From an uncultured ANME-2 cluster archaeon (lineage in GTDB: Archaea; Halobacteriota; Methanosarcinia; Methanosarcinales; Methanogasteraceae), in NCBI GenBank assembly GCA_965195165.1, contig CBDAFH010000090.1:1-29691 (forward strand): a DNA stretch of 29,691 nt. Reading direction: 5' to 3'. Below are positions 3,428-28,095 of the stretch, piece after piece. A program made the translations under genes and the position numbers. The notes beneath the pieces were generated by a model. That model was not told the DNA's origin, did not search any database, and saw only the letters and a program-made list of their open reading frames with translations. Every line of letters starts with the position of its first letter. The stretch's first letter is position 1.

Positions 3428-4702
3428 ATGAATAGCAGAACCATAATAGTGATATTGTCCGCAGTGGTGATCGCTGCGGTATTATCCGGATGCGTTGAAG
3501 AGTTATCGGATCACGGAATTGAAACGGTAGATCCGACACCGCAACTGAATGCGACACCGAGTGCAACGCCCATATCAAAGGCAACGCCAAGTCCGTTACA
3601 GATACTCACTCCAGAAGCAACACTGCCGAGATCTAATATGGCATTGAGCAATTATCCAAAACTGTTTGGGAAGGATGGGATAATCGTAATCGGAGAGAAT
3701 GCTAACAAAACTCTTGAATACTGGGGAAGAACATCTCCTCGGTACCCACATCTTACATGGATGATTAGAGGTTCCGAGACAATAGCCAAAAACTTGTACA
3801 ACATCACAGGGAATACCCCTGTGATTAAAACTGATGCAGAGCTTACAGAGCGCGATAGAACAGAGTGCAACCTAATCCTTCTCGGAAATCCGCTTCAAGT
3901 ATCGGTTGAAGGACGTCCTCCTGATGCCAATACTGTAATCACTGAAATATACGAATCAAATCCCCCTATGAAAAGGGTGACACGCAATTACCCGGGACGG
4001 TGGAAAGGAGTATTGGAACTTTTTAAAAACCCATGGAATCCGGAAAAGCACATATTAATCGTTTCCGGAAGTGAAGATCGTGGAATAAAGGCTGCGCTTG
4101 CAAAGTTAGAAGGGATCCATGAGATAAACGAAACCTGCATTATTGTAGAGTGTGAGAGCGAACAAAAAGAGATTCACCATGAGATTGACACAACACCGGC
4201 ATTGGCAGGATTATTAGAACCTTATATTTCTAACATAACGATGGAGGACATCGGTTTTGAAGTCACGAAAACAAAGGAGGTACGTTCCTTGAATAGTATT
4301 GGTAAACCAAATGTTCCTTTTCTAATTAAACACTTTAAAATCCCAGGAAATTCATACGTAGGGTTGGTAAACGTTACTTTTAAGAATCCTGTTGAAATTA
4401 ACAATATATTTATAAAACCTGTACAACCAGCGGTGATGGGCAGTGCTGATGATTATCACTGGTTAAATTACACACCACCACCCTATACGATCGACAACGA
4501 AACATACGCATCGCATGAATTATATCCTGGAGAAGAATATAAATATTGGCCCAGTACTGATGATAGGATTCAAGAAGGTGAAGTATTGGTTCACATCTTC
4601 CCTATTCAGTACATCCCGGCGGATCGGAGGATCATCGCATACAAAAATGCAACAATTTCAATATTTTATCGTGTGCCTGTGCCGGAGGACGACTATTCAT
4701 GA
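3428..4702 (+). CDS. Lipoprotein with Pro/Thr linker, S-layer-like alpha/beta domain and C-terminal peptidase-C25 (gingipain) propeptide-like domain
   Basis: Lipobox LSGC follows a hydrophobic helix, then a TPxxTP linker and NLILLGNP...NPWNPEKHILIVSGSEDRG. The C-terminal GKPNVP..KIP...PVQP...YASHELYPG...IFPIQYIP matches the propeptide-C25 pattern. ATGA overlap with the next gene; TTTAAATT box at about 3372. Confidence 0.7.
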   Translation: MNSRTIIVILSAVVIAAVLSGCVEELSDHGIETVDPTPQLNATPSATPISKATPSPLQILTPEATLPRSNMALSNYPKLFGKDGIIVIGENANKTLEYWGRTSPRYPHLTWMIRGSETIAKNLYNITGNTPVIKTDAELTERDRTECNLILLGNPLQVSVEGRPPDANTVITEIYESNPPMKRVTRNYPGRWKGVLELFKNPWNPEKHILIVSGSEDRGIKAALAKLEGIHEINETCIIVECESEQKEIHHEIDTTPALAGLLEPYISNITMEDIGFEVTKTKEVRSLNSIGKPNVPFLIKHFKIPGNSYVGLVNVTFKNPVEINNIFIKPVQPAVMGSADDYHWLNYTPPPYTIDNETYASHELYPGEEYKYWPSTDDRIQEGEVLVHIFPIQYIPADRRIIAYKNATISIFYRVPVPEDDYS

Positions 4703-5757
4703 GAAATATGACGGGTTTAATCACAGCGATCACAGCCCTTGTTTTATTACTCAGTACTGGCATAAGTGTAGCAGAGGATTGCGAGTGCATTATCATAACG
4801 CACCCGGATTTCGTTAGTGAGTGTGAAATACTGGCTGATTGGAAAACCAATACTGGAATCTCCACAAGAGTCGCTGATACGACATGGATAAATAATAATT
4901 TTGCAGGATTTGACGGTAATGACCTTCAGGCAAAGATTAAGGATTATATATACGATAGCCATGATCTGGATGATACAATGTATGTGATCCTCGCTGGCGA
5001 TGTTGATCGCGTGCCGACGAGATATGCATACGTGGATGATAGCAATCAAGGAGATGGAAAATACGTGCCATGCGATCTATATTATGCTGATGTCATCTTC
5101 CATGACGGTATGGGCACTCCCTCTCACTGGGATCCAAATGGCGATGGGTTATACGGTGCAATGGGTCCTGATTTGGCGGTCAATGATACGCCTGATATGA
5201 GACCTGATGTGTCTATAGGAAGACTCCCGGCCAGCAGTAAAGCCGAGCTAAACACGTTGATAGACAAGATAGTAAAATATGAAATCAATGCATACGATCC
5301 CGACTGGGTTAAAAAAACAACACTGATCGCAGATGATGGATGTTTTAGTGATTTCGAAGATTTTAAAGATCAAACAGAGCAGTATTTTACAGACTGGGGC
5401 GTTCCGCCATCTGATATTCAAAAGTTATACGGAACTTCCTGTACTGCAGAGAATGTACAGGATGCGCTAAATGAAGGGCGAAGATTTGTGAATTATGCAG
5501 GTCATGGAGGGTTAAAAAGCTGGTCCTGCCCAGGATATACGAATGCAGATGCCGCCTCCTTAACCAATGGCGAAAAAACACCGATAATCGCAGCAAAGGC
5601 ATGCTATACCGCAGGCTTTGACATGCCAGAAGGCACAGGTGGCATTGACCCATCACCGCAGCCAATAGACGATGAATGTATCGGCGAGACGTTCTTGTTA
5701 AACCCGAATGGGGGGGGGAATAACCTATCTGGGTGCAACCAGGGTCTCGTACCATGA
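4699..5757 (+). CDS. Gingipain-like peptidase C25, N-terminal part (signal peptide plus catalytic domain), cut short by a frameshift
   Basis: Sec signal peptide, YVILAGD, CDLYYAD, PDVSIGRLP, NYAGHG (catalytic His), ACYTAGFD (catalytic Cys) and IGETFLLNPNGGG. The frame is lost at the G9 tract. Confidence 0.88.
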   Translation: MRNMTGLITAITALVLLLSTGISVAEDCECIIITHPDFVSECEILADWKTNTGISTRVADTTWINNNFAGFDGNDLQAKIKDYIYDSHDLDDTMYVILAGDVDRVPTRYAYVDDSNQGDGKYVPCDLYYADVIFHDGMGTPSHWDPNGDGLYGAMGPDLAVNDTPDMRPDVSIGRLPASSKAELNTLIDKIVKYEINAYDPDWVKKTTLIADDGCFSDFEDFKDQTEQYFTDWGVPPSDIQKLYGTSCTAENVQDALNEGRRFVNYAGHGGLKSWSCPGYTNADAASLTNGEKTPIIAAKACYTAGFDMPEGTGGIDPSPQPIDDECIGETFLLNPNGGGNNLSGCNQGLVP

Positions 5758-7882
5758 CGTGGACGAACTTTCAGGCTTGATTGACAAAATGTTCTGGGAA
5801 GCAATCGATGATTACGATACAGTTGGAGAGTGCTGGAAATACGCTATTAAGAAAGAAGCAGGTAGAGATGATCCGGATATCAAGTCGAGAAAAGTCCTCA
5901 CCACATACGTCCTTTTAGGCGACCCAACACTGAGAATCCGTGGTCGGCTATACGAGGAGTGGTCAATGCTGAACCACGACCCACAGAGATCAGGACGCTC
6001 AGCCCTGAAAGGCGACCTATCAGGAACCATGCACTACACCACAATACTCGACAGCGACAAAGTCACATATCCCGCAGTAGCTGACATCGATGGCGACGGA
6101 AAGCAAGAGATCGTTATATCAAACGAGGACGCGATCCGTGCATTTGAAGGAAACGGCGATCATATCTGGACATACAGGGGGATTACGGCTGCGAAAAACA
6201 CGCCCACAATAGGCGATGTGGACGGTGACGGAGAGCAAGAAGTCGTGGTAGAAACCCACGATTCCAAACTCTACATCCTCGATGCCGCATCCGGAGATTA
6301 TGAGTGGGACTACACCGCAGCTGATATCGTTGTCTCGCCTCCGATCGTTGCGGACATCGATGGCGACGGAAAGAAAGAGATCGTATTTGGGGATGGTTAT
6401 TATCTTTCCGAGGACAGACACATCTATGCGCTGAATGGGGATACAAGAGACGAGTTATGGAAGGTCACACCAGGTGGTCATAACATCTGGCAGGCGATGG
6501 CAGATGTGGATGGTGACGGAAAGCAGGAGATAATCGGCGTAAATGGAGATGGGGTATTTGCATTGAATGCAGAGAGTGGATCGGTGCTCTGGCAGAAGGA
6601 ATATAGAAACGCAGTTTGTCTGCCAGCGATCGCCGATCTCGATAACGATGGTGAACTGGAGATAGCATTTGGGACATGGTATTATGAGGGTTTTGGCGGC
6701 ATCAATCGGTCGTATGTGATTGATGCTGCAACCGGGGAGCTGGAATGGTATTACGATCTCGATGATTGGCCCGGACAGAGTTCGACAGGCGATGTGGATG
6801 GCGATGGTGTGCTTGAGGTCGTATTTAACACGCTCAATCAGGACATCTACTGTCTCGATCGCTATGACATGTGGGTTTATCCTCGCGATGGAAATGGGGC
6901 GGCGAGGGCTAATCATTACATCATCTCTGCTGTCGCGATTGCTGATGTAGATAACGATAACAATTTAGAGATAATCGTTGGATCGACCGAAGGTTATCTC
7001 GATATCTTCAGTGGCAGTGGCTCTCTGGAGAGGAGGTATAATCTCGGAGGAATAGTAGAAAACCCTGCGATTGGAGATGTGGATGATGACGGCAAGGCAG
7101 AGATCGTCGTAAAGAACGGCATCATTGGCTCGCGGTCTTCGTCATTGGGAGATGGCGGTGGTGTGATTTATGCTGAAACTTCGCCCCCGAAAGCTAATAG
7201 TGGCGTGATCCATGCAAAAACCGAAATTTTCAAGCCCGACAATCACTCTTCGCCCCCGAAAACCAGCAGCGGGGTGATCTGGTACAATCACGTGCCTATC
7301 GTTATGAATGCGTCGGTTAATGCTGCAGATATTCTTACAACTACCGTTCATGCTTCTGATTTCGAGTCAAATGCCGTACTGGTCTTAAGCGGTCCGGATC
7401 CGGATCTTGTGATGGCTACATCTGATATCTCATTCGATCCGGTTTCTCCAACCACAGCGGATATCGTTACGATAACTGCCACTGTTCACAACCAAAGAGA
7501 TGATTCATTCACGAACAAACCATTCAAAGTCTCCTTTTATGATGAAGAGAATCTAATCGGAGATGATTTGATTGTGGAGTCGATACCACCCGTTGGAGAT
7601 GTAAATGCGAGTGTTGAGTGGCATTATCCAGGCACTGGAATGCATAACATATCCGTGATCGTGGATTCCGGGTATTCGATACCAGAGACGGATGATGCCA
7701 ATAATGAGGCAGAAAAGGAAGTTGTCGTTGTTCCGGCAGCCATCCATACGGTGGACGCGGTGCTTGCCCTTCAAATGGCTACTGGTAGTATTCCTGCCGA
7801 TCCGGCAGCGGATGTGAACTCAGATGGAGCGGTTACCTCACTTGATGCGCTTTTGATATTACAATACTGCAAAACACAATAG
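5708..7882 (+). CDS. C-terminal part of the same protease: end of the C25 domain, 8 FG-GAP/PQQ-like beta-propeller repeats, CARDB domain, dockerin-like tail
   Basis: ITYLGATR..Y and YVLLGDPTL (C25 end); WSMLNHDPQRSG; eight (A/G)D(I/V/L)DxDGxxEI repeats; PDLVMATSDISF...VDSGYSIPETDDANN (CARDB); DVNSDGAVTSLDALLILQ (dockerin). The joined product would be about 1060 aa. Confidence 0.85.
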   Translation: MGGGITYLGATRVSYHDVDELSGLIDKMFWEAIDDYDTVGECWKYAIKKEAGRDDPDIKSRKVLTTYVLLGDPTLRIRGRLYEEWSMLNHDPQRSGRSALKGDLSGTMHYTTILDSDKVTYPAVADIDGDGKQEIVISNEDAIRAFEGNGDHIWTYRGITAAKNTPTIGDVDGDGEQEVVVETHDSKLYILDAASGDYEWDYTAADIVVSPPIVADIDGDGKKEIVFGDGYYLSEDRHIYALNGDTRDELWKVTPGGHNIWQAMADVDGDGKQEIIGVNGDGVFALNAESGSVLWQKEYRNAVCLPAIADLDNDGELEIAFGTWYYEGFGGINRSYVIDAATGELEWYYDLDDWPGQSSTGDVDGDGVLEVVFNTLNQDIYCLDRYDMWVYPRDGNGAARANHYIISAVAIADVDNDNNLEIIVGSTEGYLDIFSGSGSLERRYNLGGIVENPAIGDVDDDGKAEIVVKNGIIGSRSSSLGDGGGVIYAETSPPKANSGVIHAKTEIFKPDNHSSPPKTSSGVIWYNHVPIVMNASVNAADILTTTVHASDFESNAVLVLSGPDPDLVMATSDISFDPVSPTTADIVTITATVHNQRDDSFTNKPFKVSFYDEENLIGDDLIVESIPPVGDVNASVEWHYPGTGMHNISVIVDSGYSIPETDDANNEAEKEVVVVPAAIHTVDAVLALQMATGSIPADPAADVNSDGAVTSLDALLILQYCKTQ
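5710..5718 (+). repeat. G9 homopolymer at the frameshift point
   Basis: AAC CCG AAT GGGGGGGGG AAT AAC. With 8 G the frame reads NPNGGGITYLGATRVSY and joins the downstream ORF. Confidence 0.95.
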
Positions 7883-24509: not shown

Positions 24510-25745
24510 TCACTCTTTCTCAGCCACCAGAATAACCGTAGAATATGTAAAAAGCAGTCTCCCAGCATCATCAAAGCGAACCCTGAGACCGGTTTTATCA
24601 TCCTCGATCGAATCAGCCATCATGCGCCGGACCTCTCTGGCGATCTCCTCACCGGGATCTGCGATCTTTACCCACTCATCGAGATAGAAGTCAGCATCCC
24701 AGTTTCTCGCATGAATAACCTTGAGCCCCGCATCCTGAAGCACCCCAACCAGTTCTGGCTCTGAATACAGGCGAACATGTGACGGATCACGGAGTTGCTC
24801 GATTCTGTTGTGGTATTCACCCTTTGCGGCATCCTCTGAAGAGAGTCCGTCCACGAGCACGATCTTCCCGCCGGTTTTGCAGACGCGAGCCATCTCTGAT
24901 ACCGCCTTTTCCGGATCTGTGAAATGGTGGAATGCGAACCTGCATGATACGATATCGAACGACCCGTCCTCAAATCCGAGCGATTCCGCATCCATTACCC
25001 TGAAATCTACATTATCAAGACCCCGCTCTCTCTGTATGCCCTCAGCAACCAGAAGCATATCCCGGGTCATGTCGCAGCCGATGACGTTATATTCAGAAAC
25101 CCGTTTTGCGAACTCAAACGCAAGAAATCCATTCCCTGTCGCCACATCAAGCACCTTGTCAGACGCCCTGGGCGCGGTCAGGTCAACGATCAGGTTCAGG
25201 TGTTCCTTGTCCGAGAGGATGCTGCTCTTCGAATACGCGCCCGACCGCCTGCCGAACCGCTCCTTTGCCGACTGTTTCTTGCGGTGCGCGACGAGACCGC
25301 CATCCATCAGGATCTCGAGCAGGAAATCCGGCATCTTCGTACCAGTGTACTCGAAACCTCCTGCGGTTACCGTGCCGTCTTCGATATCGATCTCAACCAC
25401 GTCCCCTTCTTTGCAGGGAACCATCGTTCCGGTCTCGATCAATGGAAGCCCGATGTTTATGGAATTTCGAAAGAAGATGCGCGCAAAGGATGCCGCCACA
25501 ACGCACCCAACGCCTGCATGTTTGATCGCGAGCACTGCTTGCTCTCTCGATGAGCCGCATCCAAAATTCATGCCGGCGACGATGATATCGCCGCGCCCAA
25601 CATTCCCTGCAAATCCGGGATCGATACCCTCGAGCACGTGATCGGCAAATACCTGCATGTCGGTGGTGCGCAGGTATTTGCCGGGGATTATCGCATCGGT
25701 ATCGATGTCATCCCCGAATATCCATGCCTTTCCTTTTATCTTCAC
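24510..25745 (-). CDS. Fusion: homoaconitase/isopropylmalate-isomerase small subunit (AksE/LeuD type, YLRT loop) plus UbiE-like class I SAM methyltransferase, 411 aa
   Basis: GTG start overlaps the upstream [51 protein letters not shown] and GGLV run without a stop into [32 protein letters not shown] and [13 protein letters not shown]. Confidence 0.85.
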
Positions 25746-26524
25746 TTCAGAACGACCAGTGGATGATGTTTTCCTTTCCCAACTGGCTTCTCTTTGTGTG
25801 GCGCTCTTACGATCTCGGTGTACTTGTCCATCTCTTCCGTGCCTTTTACGAAGACTGCATTGAAGTACTTCGTGGTTCTCGGATCCATTCCAAGCAATCC
25901 GAAGTGCAGCGCGAGTTCGACTATGAACCAGTACATCGCCCACAGGTGAACTGTGCGCACAAATCCGATCGGGGACATGTTGAACCATGTAGAGATGTAT
26001 CCAATGTAAGTGAAGATCACAGGTTCAATATACGTATGCCAGAACGCATACTCAGGAGCGTACATGATAACTCCGGTTGCCACGACCAGGACTATAGCGA
26101 TGTTCTCTGGTATCACCAGCAGCTTGATTGCCGGGTGCAGCTTGTTTTTGTAGTGTCCGGACTCTTGGTCGACGACGACGTATCGCGGATACTCCGCCTT
26201 GCCAAAGAGACTGAGAATCATATTCTTCAACTGGATCGCATCAGGTATGAAGAAGATCTCCGAAAGGAGATGCCCGCTCGTAAGCAGGTTATAGATGGTG
26301 AATATCCAGACTGCTATGATGAATATGAGCGCGGCGAACATGTGGAACAAGCGCACGTTCTCATACGGGATGAGATGCCACGCATCCATCGTACACATAT
26401 TGAACTGCTTTGCCATGTACCAGCCGGTGATTATAAGGGTTACACATGAAAATAGGTGGAATGCATGCGCACGCATGCTTTTTGGGTCATATCGTTCGGT
26501 TATCAAACCATTGCTCTGTGACAT
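25742..26524 (-). CDS. Di-heme cytochrome b of the hydrogenase/formate-dehydrogenase (VhtC/FdnI-like) family
   Basis: ERY....RAHAFH, RLFHM, KLHP..KLL, ATG..MY, RTVHLW and ELALHFG give four TM helices with ligand His residues. RBS GAGGAGG. Confidence 0.75.
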
Positions 26525-26543
26525 GTAATGCCTCCTCTGCCGC

Positions 26544-26599
26544 ATATCGCGGCGGCATTGCGATATACGAACCGATCACTTTTAAATGTTACGGTTCGT
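26544..26599 (-). promoter_or_regulatory. Cytochrome b promoter with two adjacent inverted repeats
   Basis: ACGAACCG-N17-CGGTTCGT encloses TTTTAAA; next to it lies ATATCGC-N9-GCGATAT, just upstream of the RBS. Confidence 0.5.
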
Positions 26600-26628: not shown

Positions 26629-27978
26629 CTATGCGGTGCCCGAATTTCCTTTTACGTAATCCACACCCTCCCGCAGATACCCAATCGCTTCTTCGATCCT
26701 GCCTGGTTCTTCGAACCCGTAAGATAGCCGCATCTGCCTTCTCCCGACCTCTGCCATACTGCCCGCCGGATGGACGCAGAACTCACCGGGAAGATAGAGC
26801 ACCCGCGGCTTTTTCTCGTCGGGGGAGCCGTCGATACTATGATCTCCCGTCGTCCTTGAGAGGAACCTGTGGAGTGGCGAGCCCTCACCGGTCATGATCC
26901 CTTCTTCGAATGTCAGGTAGTAGTAAAATCCAGCCCTGCCGCCTCGGATGTCCACAATAAAGTCCCCGATCGCCTCATCGATCCATCTCCTGACCGCGAC
27001 CGCCCGTTCCCGGTACCCAGCCCTGACCTTCCGGATCTGGTCGTTTATGTGGTGATCCATGATGTAGCTTGCGATCTCCTGCGTGATGAGCGGCGCACTG
27101 AACCCCACATCGTTCGTCCGCTGAACCATCGCACGCATGAACGCGCCCGGGGATCCGGTCATGTAACCGATCCGAAGCGCGGGCGCGAGTACCTTTGAGA
27201 GCGTCCCCACCTCGTAAACGATTCCGAGATCGTCGTAGAGAAATCCTGATTCGGGCGCTTCTGCAAGAGGATCGTGTATCATGTCCTCATAAGCCTTGTC
27301 AAATATTATCGGAATCTTTCTGTTTAGATCGCGGGACAGTTCTGTCACGATCCGGACCAGTTCTCTCCTGCGATCGTTTGAGAGGATCGTGCTTGTCGGG
27401 TTGTTAACCGTTACGATATAGACGAATCTGACCTCCTGCCTTGCCTCGCCGAGTTCTTCGATCGATTTCCGCAGCAGATCGGTTCTTATACCATACTCAT
27501 CCTCAGGAACTGCTAAAAGATGAAAACCAGACCTTTCAAGGAGATTGCAGTAGATGTAATAGATCGGGTCGGTTGTTATCACGATACCCGGCTTTACGAG
27601 ATGCGATACCCCATCGAGCAGACTTGTTGCGCCATTCGGACCGATTATGATCTCCTTTGATCCCAGTATCTCTTCATCCATACCACCGATCCTGTTATCA
27701 AGATGATACCGCCTGATCGACTCGATTAAGTTCACAGATCCCTTTGAGCCGCCGTAGTTGAGTGCCGCCCTGTACTTCTCAGGATGGGCGAGAACCTCCC
27801 TCTGCGCTTCTTCGATCAATCTCCGGGGTATCGTCCTCTCATTCACGTACCCCACCCCGAGATTGATGTCGATGCCGTCCCTGAACTCGAGAGCGAAGTC
27901 TGTCATCATCCGGTTGACAGGCGAGGGCGTGGATGAGGCGTACCCGTACTTGGATAATGAGATTTCATCCAGTTTCAT
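26629..27978 (-). CDS. PLP-dependent aminotransferase, class I/II (MocR/Aro8/2-aminoadipate-transaminase-like)
   Basis: INLGVG, LNYG..KG, NNPT, DKAY, GTLSKVLAPALRIG (PLP Lys), MRLSYG. Start is ATG 27978 or GTG 27981. Confidence 0.88.
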   Translation of the reverse strand: MKLDEISLSKYGYASSTPSPVNRMMTDFALEFRDGIDINLGVGYVNERTIPRRLIEEAQREVLAHPEKYRAALNYGGSKGSVNLIESIRRYHLDNRIGGMDEEILGSKEIIIGPNGATSLLDGVSHLVKPGIVITTDPIYYIYCNLLERSGFHLLAVPEDEYGIRTDLLRKSIEELGEARQEVRFVYIVTVNNPTSTILSNDRRRELVRIVTELSRDLNRKIPIIFDKAYEDMIHDPLAEAPESGFLYDDLGIVYEVGTLSKVLAPALRIGYMTGSPGAFMRAMVQRTNDVGFSAPLITQEIASYIMDHHINDQIRKVRAGYRERAVAVRRWIDEAIGDFIVDIRGGRAGFYYYLTFEEGIMTGEGSPLHRFLSRTTGDHSIDGSPDEKKPRVLYLPGEFCVHPAGSMAEVGRRQMRLSYGFEEPGRIEEAIGYLREGVDYVKGNSGTA

Positions 27979-28095
27979 CACTTCTTACGGGGCGTTATCA
28001 TTATTTGAACTTTGCCGACCAGAACTGAAGACATCAATGAATCGAAAGGATTATGTACGCCGAGAACAGTGATTGGGTAAAAATGGAGACTGACA

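Follow-up and report, generated by a model that had tools for sequence, protein, structure and literature searches.

A homoaconitase-type small subunit fused to a class I methyltransferase across the ANME-2c family of archaea

The gene described here lies on a 29,691-nt contig (CBDAFH010000090.1; 'the window' denotes this whole stretch) from an uncultured archaeon of cluster ANME-2c, one of the anaerobic methanotrophic (ANME) lineages, whose metagenome-assembled genome (MAG; G000 below) is 78% complete. Within a single open reading frame (ORF), a small subunit of the homoaconitase (HacB/AksE) type is joined to a complete class I S-adenosylmethionine (SAM)-dependent methyltransferase. The fusion has a single origin and is fixed across the ANME-2c family; both halves are under purifying selection, and selection has kept them together. 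We favour, with a probability of roughly 60%, a bifunctional protein whose two activities are independent in their chemistry; on this view it was produced a single time, when rearrangement and the loss of a stop codon joined the genes in the ANME-2c ancestor, and it has been kept since. The two domains come from known families. Searches of the literature turned up no paper describing a hacB–methyltransferase fusion, and neither its restriction to one family nor the ANME-linked distribution of the methyltransferase.

The frame runs on the minus strand from GTG at position 25745 to TGA at 24510–24512 and encodes 411 amino acids (aa) with zero internal stops (Table 1). An earlier reading made from the letters of the DNA only (the sequence-only reading) had proposed a LeuD/AksE domain that continues in frame and without a stop into a methyltransferase, and both domains indeed exceed their profile cut-offs within this one frame. 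Residues 5–158 match TIGR02087 (LEUD_arch) at 213–216 bits against a cut-off of 108.95, with all 157 profile positions covered, and residues ~195–300 match Methyltransf_11/25/31 at 86–88 bits against cut-offs of 21–27; homology to complete methyltransferases reaches aa 411. A longer ORF call of 492 aa starts at an upstream ATG inside the preceding gene, and GTG 25745 is the start used in the sequence-only reading.

The junction quoted in that reading is located at aa 149–165. An AlphaFold2 model computed from 69 aligned sequences, both fused and single-domain relatives, has a mean predicted local distance difference test (pLDDT) score of 95.5, a predicted template modelling (pTM) score of 0.86 and a pLDDT of at least 70 in every segment. 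It places a junction helix at aa 151–166, then 168–172, with a pLDDT of ~89. Because a single helix bridges both domains in a confident model, the prediction suggests that their relative orientation is fixed. The N-termini of free-standing orthologues of the methyltransferase align at aa ~158–160 of the fusion, indicating that a whole methyltransferase is joined to the end of HacB, essentially without a linker.

Conservation of this architecture is extensive. First, a word-indexed search of 5.8 billion proteins, which answers the call of the sequence-only reading for two-domain proteins, returned more than 60 protein clusters of ~410 aa that carry both domains, share 74–93% identity and all have the same open junction. 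These derive from independent ENA, JGI, NCBI and Logan assemblies, and some are named Candidatus Methanogaster (ANME-2c). Second, a six-frame search of related genomes found a continuous match from aa 1 to 410 or 411 in four genera of the window's family. Copies in the family, carried by 25 of 26 other species genomes, are open frames of at least 411 aa, except for one cut by a contig end (G005) and one degraded copy (G009), and the 22 ORFs aligned from species genomes of the four genera hold zero stops. Across these 22 orthologues the junction (Q/E)SAK(E/D)RFG is nearly invariant, GCGSSREQA is kept in all and the YLRT loop is kept in 21, the remaining one having YLHT. The junction codons vary at synonymous sites among the 22 genomes, which indicates that the open frame is maintained and not just recently inherited. 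Third, pairwise ratios of nonsynonymous to synonymous substitution rates (dN/dS) are 0.06–0.14 in the LeuD half, 0.09–0.25 in the methyltransferase half and 0.09–0.38 in the junction; between genera of the family, dS is close to 1 or higher.

These data also bear on whether the gene is an artefact or in decay, that is, an assembly or sequencing error or a recent stop loss that left one half non-functional. The one observation in that direction comes from G009 (84% complete), in which an intact copy was not found and contig C3 (L032 = L095, 3032–3962) holds a degraded partial fusion covering aa 102–411, with three stops and a frameshift. That copy, however, sits in another neighbourhood, with neither cytochrome b nor EF-2 nearby, and elsewhere the same architecture recurs in the clusters from independent assemblies, with intact catalytic motifs and dN/dS well below 1 in both halves at dS of ~1. 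We put the chance of an artefact or decaying gene at next to nil.

A private lost stop, the outcome that the sequence-only reading had named as fatal to its own proposal, is likewise contradicted by the family-wide fixation of the fusion. Split alleles were not found inside ANME-2c: the fusion is one tblastn segment in 23 of the 24 named ANME-2c contigs, G009 being the exception. The contig that encodes a 235-aa database protein (P0070) carries an intact single frame (L077), so the short protein reflects a gene-calling choice, and others of the short database proteins are cut by contig ends. An exhaustive HMMER search of 1.84 billion representative proteins gave one fused representative and no independent LeuD–methyltransferase fusion among the 150 best matches. 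Other long matches that were inspected proved to be tandem methyltransferases, a methyltransferase with a glyoxalase, or LeuD with DUF429 or an M20 fragment.

Two further observations concern individual family members. One genus (g3; L029, L030 and L031) has an acidic, glycine-rich insert of 17–20 aa in a beta-hairpin of the LeuD domain, at alignment columns ~140–160, between VR(V) and (E/R)EY(T/A/S)GTKMP. The ANME-2c fusion also occurs, at 92% identity, on contig QMOR01000132.1 (L073), which is filed as 'Bacteroidetes bacterium isolate B8_G4' and is probably a mis-binned archaeal sequence.

The HacB half can be assigned from its loop and from the operon that holds its orthologues. Its YLRT aligns residue for residue with YLRT of MJ1271 (2pkp), the homoaconitase small subunit of Methanocaldococcus jannaschii, and with YLVY of MJ1277 (3vba), the small subunit of isopropylmalate/citramalate isomerase; from work on MJ1271, we take Arg-Thr in this loop to mark homoaconitase as opposed to Val-Tyr. 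The likeness to MJ1271 extends to the fold and length of aa 1–158 (51% identity in the Foldseek alignment), the identical YLRT at the same residue numbers and the GSSRE motif; whereas MJ1271 ends soon after its GGL..KK helix, that helix in the fusion runs on into the 250-aa methyltransferase. Global scores are less telling: PDB matches reach 1.4e-46 for 3vba and 2.1e-44 for 2pkp, and Foldseek gives target-normalised template modelling (TM) scores of 0.87–0.92 against 3vba, 1v7l and 2pkp. Since the global score is slightly higher to MJ1277, the assignment is based on the loop and operon orthology. The NCBIfam equivalogs fall below cut-off, HacB2_Meth at 201–204 bits against 230 and HacB_Meth at 174–179 against 230, and the unfused hacB orthologue of a sister family is likewise just under the cut-off, at 222 bits. 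G000 encodes three small subunits and three large subunits of aconitase-type enzymes and three Iso_dh genes. The equivalog models fail to separate its three small-subunit paralogues, which the loop and operon orthology do: the fused one is the only YLRT copy, another, adjoining a large subunit, has YLVT, and the third has YKYD.

Searched with the fused LeuD half, the other families of the order give as best match a free protein of 160–170 aa with 62–75% identity, which shows YLRT wherever the loop was read. In most of these sister-family genomes it heads a three-gene cluster, hacB / DUF7714 (XcbA-like) / AksF-like dehydrogenase; DUF7714 matches the XcbA family at E = 3e-23, under that family's cut-off, and the best specific matches of the dehydrogenase are AksF models. 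With its best matches in a coenzyme B-type operon and its YLRT loop, the fused domain is the orthologue of that operon's hacB and is of the homoaconitase small-subunit type, in agreement with the sequence-only reading. The ANME-2c arrangement differs from that of the other Methanosarcinales, with hacB sitting behind a cytochrome b gene and fused to the methyltransferase. A six-frame search found no hacB-operon-type copy other than the fused one in ANME-2c genomes. ANME-2c depend on methyl-coenzyme M reductase (MCR), and for this reason we infer that the HacB half must be functional and would be catalytically competent.

The three-gene cluster was seen at L042 (4084–6421, +) and at L043, L046, L047, L049, L050, L052–L054 and L056. 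ANME-2c have lost this arrangement: their DUF7714 gene is found away from hacB and aksF, and in most of the loci examined (L061–L069) the gene after it encodes an AAA_18 P-loop protein of 174–191 aa. The DUF7714 gene of G000 is itself split across two contig ends (contigs C86 and C75; L057 and L058). Among 14 control genomes, DUF7714 occurs in Methanosarcina acetivorans only.

The nearest relatives of the METHYLTRANSFERASE half are free-standing proteins of 252–260 aa that share 43–54% identity over its full length. Named carriers of the free form are Candidatus Methanovorans and related Methanosarcinaceae MAGs (ANME-3), Methanoperedens (ANME-2d) and Methanocomedens (ANME-2a), and a few relatives from Chloroflexota come next, at 42–44% identity. 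We tallied orthologues at E <= 1e-45 in 284 species genomes of the order, naming groups by matching contig coordinates. The gene is present in 25 of 26 genomes of the ANME-2c family, 15 of 20 of the family holding Methanocomedens, 35 of 53 of the Methanoperedens family (Methanoperedenaceae) and the one genome of a single-genome family, and in 0/6 of one further family. Within Methanosarcinaceae (12/177), carriers are Methanovorans (9 of 10 genomes) and an uncultured genus of Zodletone-spring MAGs (3/3), and the count is 0/164 for all other genera of that family, which do carry the hacB operon. The distribution of the methyltransferase thus tracks anaerobic methanotrophy, not coenzyme B synthesis.

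In a tree of these methyltransferases, the lineages separate into clades of their own, one of which comprises the fused sequences, with support of 99. The stem branch of the fused clade, at 0.26, is the shortest, those of the other lineages being 0.41 or more. Across fused and free forms, 33 alignment columns are invariant; the free proteins of Methanovorans, Methanoperedens and Methanocomedens are orthologues that share these residues but are encoded by separate genes. The common invariant residues and the shortest stem give no sign of a new function after fusion, and the activity of the fused domain is most likely still that of its free counterparts.

The closest solved relatives of this half are YcgJ of Bacillus subtilis (1XXL/2GLU) and BH2331 of Bacillus halodurans (1VL5), which have the Rossmann core and C-terminal lid in common with it and, unlike the fusion, are free-standing bacterial proteins. 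PDB matches reach 2.5e-36 for 1xxl and 8.9e-30 for 1vl5, with Foldseek TM scores of 0.90–0.92 (target-normalised) at 30–32% identity. Beyond these two, the nearest folds are, at a distance, small-molecule methyltransferases with a lid domain. A search of the ESM Atlas returned only generic methyltransferase clusters, and no reported function for YcgJ or BH2331 was found in the literature searched.

Several better characterised families were tried as assignments and rejected. BLASTP against Tam of Escherichia coli K-12 gave E = 0.89, aligning the SAM motif only, and no chain named trans-aconitate methyltransferase occurs among 36 PDB matches (E <= 1e-5). Scores are 58–60 bits against a cut-off of 184.95 for BioC (TIGR02072), 84–86 against 158.35 for UbiE/MenG (TIGR01934) and 59–60 against 263 for ArsM (PRK11873). 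ArsM enzymes require several conserved cysteines; the orthologue alignment contains a single invariant one.

The sequence-only reading had gone on to suggest that the methyltransferase acts on a trans-homoaconitate-type inhibitor or on an elongation intermediate. There is precedent for such chemistry: E. coli Tam (trans-aconitate 2-methyltransferase) and yeast Tmt1 are class I SAM methyltransferases that act on by-products of aconitase-family enzymes, methyl-esterifying trans-aconitate and 3-isopropylmalate. In the present protein, the domain would methyl-esterify a homoaconitase-related tricarboxylate such as an inhibitory trans-(homo)aconitate, a repair or masking step tied to coenzyme B synthesis. 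The conserved fusion, its maintenance by selection, the rigid junction and the confident two-domain model fit this idea, and the invariant lid residues R111, H115, H116, R161 and H165 (numbering of alignment A1) would suit an anionic substrate. However, neither Tam nor Tmt1 has a specific sequence relation to the fused domain or is fused to an aconitase-family subunit, and the Tam and BioC comparisons fall far short. The methyltransferase was not found in 164 genomes of other Methanosarcinaceae genera, which have the same hacB operon, and the fused domain, with its invariant residues and short stem, does not show accelerated change. In the ANME-2a, 2d and 3 loci examined, the free gene never lies near hacB, hacA or aksF; a conserved hacB–methyltransferase neighbourhood is absent from relatives, the two genes being unlinked in every sister family. 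The functional part of the sequence-only reading therefore found no support. A role on homoaconitate-type compounds, for which the fusion itself is the argument, is possible but in our view unlikely. Functional coupling in a broader form, in which the target of the rigidly held domain, and of its free orthologues in ANME-2a, 2d and 3, would be a side product of the (homo)aconitate type or a precursor of coenzyme B, strikes us as slightly less likely still. If true, it would amount to a damage-control or modification step for coenzyme B that is specific to archaea running MCR oxidatively.

The genomic context raises another possibility. Directly upstream of the fusion, in every family locus that reaches that far, is a cytochrome b gene of the DUF4405/Ni_hydr_CYTB-like type, the only such gene found in G000, where it encodes 267 aa. 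Its stop codon overlaps the start of the fusion as (G/T)TGA in all 22 ANME-2c family genomes examined, and we read the fusion as translationally coupled to this VhtC-like gene. A VhtC-like cytochrome b has been reported that is specific to ANME-2a/b/c and highly transcribed; the gene behind it in ANME-2a/b encodes a multihaem cytochrome, which in ANME-2c is found elsewhere (Chadwick et al. 2022, PMC9012536). Gene order suggests that in ANME-2c the hacB–methyltransferase gene takes the position behind this McoA-like cytochrome b. Beyond the cytochrome b gene, farther upstream and in the same orientation, the window encodes a class I/II aminotransferase of 450 aa (26629–27981, −). Its position is conserved within the window's genus and was not seen in other genera, for which the fetched loci are short.

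The methyltransferase could accordingly serve an ANME-specific respiratory or electron-transfer function, with the fusion bringing about co-expression of the methyltransferase and hacB with the highly transcribed cytochrome b; candidate substrates would then be membrane carriers and the stress compounds of a sulfidic, metal-rich habitat. To our knowledge, methanophenazine does not carry a SAM-derived methyl group. The overlap in 22/22 genomes and the conserved neighbourhood agree with such a function, as do the restriction of the methyltransferase to ANME lineages, the ANME specificity of the cytochrome b and its high transcription in ANME-2c (PMC9012536). Redox and stress genes also lie beside the free orthologues, namely aldehyde:ferredoxin oxidoreductase (AFOR) in ANME-3, MsrA in the ANME-2a family and, in Methanoperedens, a heavy-metal P-type ATPase. 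These neighbours, however, vary with the lineage, and outside ANME-2c no cytochrome b is among them; neither UbiE/MenG nor ArsM membership is indicated by the scores or by the one invariant cysteine. A respiratory role seems to us quite unlikely.

In four ANME-3 loci (Methanovorans; L096, L100, L101 and L104, ~3974–6560), the AFOR gene (AFOR_N + AFOR_C) follows the methyltransferase gene on the same strand, with an overlap between the two reading frames at three of these loci. The methyltransferase of three Methanoperedens genomes (L033, L034 and L036) adjoins a heavy-metal P-type ATPase of 916–921 aa with three HMA domains; elsewhere in Methanoperedens (L108, L114, L118 and L138) the neighbours differ.

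A protein substrate (HacA, HacB itself or MCR) may also be considered. In Methanosarcina, S-methylcysteine of MCR is installed by McmA. The MCRs of ANME-2 bear seven post-translational modifications, among them an N1-methylhistidine whose installing enzyme is unnamed in the paper that describes it (PMC12413448), and this vacancy is the attraction of the idea. Yet N1-methylhistidine is a conserved MCR modification and S-methylcysteine also occurs in methanogen MCRs (PMC12413448), whereas the methyltransferase is ANME-restricted and has no orthologue in the large Methanosarcinaceae genera. The nearest folds after YcgJ and BH2331, moreover, are small-molecule enzymes. Methylation of a protein is very improbable in our view, and the distribution makes an McmA-like or other MCR-modifying role unlikely.

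We return to the reading given at the outset, of two chemically independent activities in one chain. The HacB half, with a separately encoded large subunit, would take part in 2-oxoacid elongation for the side chain of coenzyme B. The C-terminal half would be an active enzyme of the YcgJ/BH2331 type that methylates a small molecule with SAM as donor; its gene would be an accessory one of ANME-2a, 2c, 2d and 3. In the ANME-2c ancestor, the hacB / XcbA-like / aksF operon would have been broken up and hacB placed between the VhtC-like cytochrome b gene and the methyltransferase gene; the hacB stop would then have been lost, and the fusion retained with its rigid helical junction. What the fusion provides, we infer, is co-expression and not two steps of one pathway.

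Some considerations weigh against this account. The independence of the two activities is argued from distribution and context, not from a known substrate of the YcgJ-like family. The phyletic pattern represents few independent evolutionary events, the lineages being related. Maintenance of the fusion through synonymous saturation, the invariant rigid junction and the high pTM would also be expected if the domains cooperate. Further, the swivel domain of aconitase-type enzymes forms a wall of their active-site cleft, which would bring a tethered methyltransferase close to the substrate and product channel.

Table 1. Features of the fused gene and its upstream neighbour (window coordinates)
Feature	Coordinates	Strand	Evidence
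Whole fused ORF, 411 aa + stop (predicted HacB small subunit, then class I SAM methyltransferase)	24510..25745	-	ORF, domain profiles, single frame family-wide
GTG start codon of the fusion; overlaps TGA (25742-25744) of the upstream cytochrome b gene as GTGA	25743..25745	-	sequence
HacB/LeuD (aconitase swivel) domain, aa 1-158	25272..25745	-	TIGR02087 216 bits, HacB2_Meth 204 bits, PDB, Foldseek
Substrate-specificity loop Y24-L25-R26-T27	25665..25676	-	aligned with YLRT of MJ1271 and YLVY of MJ1277
Junction, aa 151-172, C-terminal HacB helix into N-terminal methyltransferase helix, without flexible linker	25230..25295	-	AlphaFold2 model, alignment, dN/dS
Class I SAM methyltransferase domain + C-terminal lid, aa 159-411, YcgJ/BH2331-like	24513..25271	-	Pfam, NCBIfam, PDB search, Foldseek
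SAM-binding motif VLDVATGNG, aa 198-206	25128..25154	-	in all fused orthologues; D, A, T, G, G invariant in free-standing ones too
VhtC/McoA-like cytochrome b gene, 267 aa, upstream; context, outside the fused protein	25742..26545	-	DUF4405 + weak Ni_hydr_CYTB

ANME-2c are major consumers of methane at marine seeps. As they cannot be grown in isolation, it is chiefly their gene content that gives access to their biochemistry. Current database names ('methanogen homoaconitase small subunit', 'methyltransferase domain-containing protein' and 'hypothetical protein') cover half of the fused protein or none of it. The fusion is a clade-defining architecture for the only HacB-type subunit of ANME-2c, the product of an essential cofactor gene. 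Within the order, the distribution of the methyltransferase follows methanotrophy and not methanogenesis, and genes that track lineages in this way are rare. If the fusion reflects coupling between its two halves, it would point to a hitherto unrecognised step around coenzyme B; failing that, anaerobic methanotrophs would still have in the methyltransferase a candidate marker and accessory enzyme.

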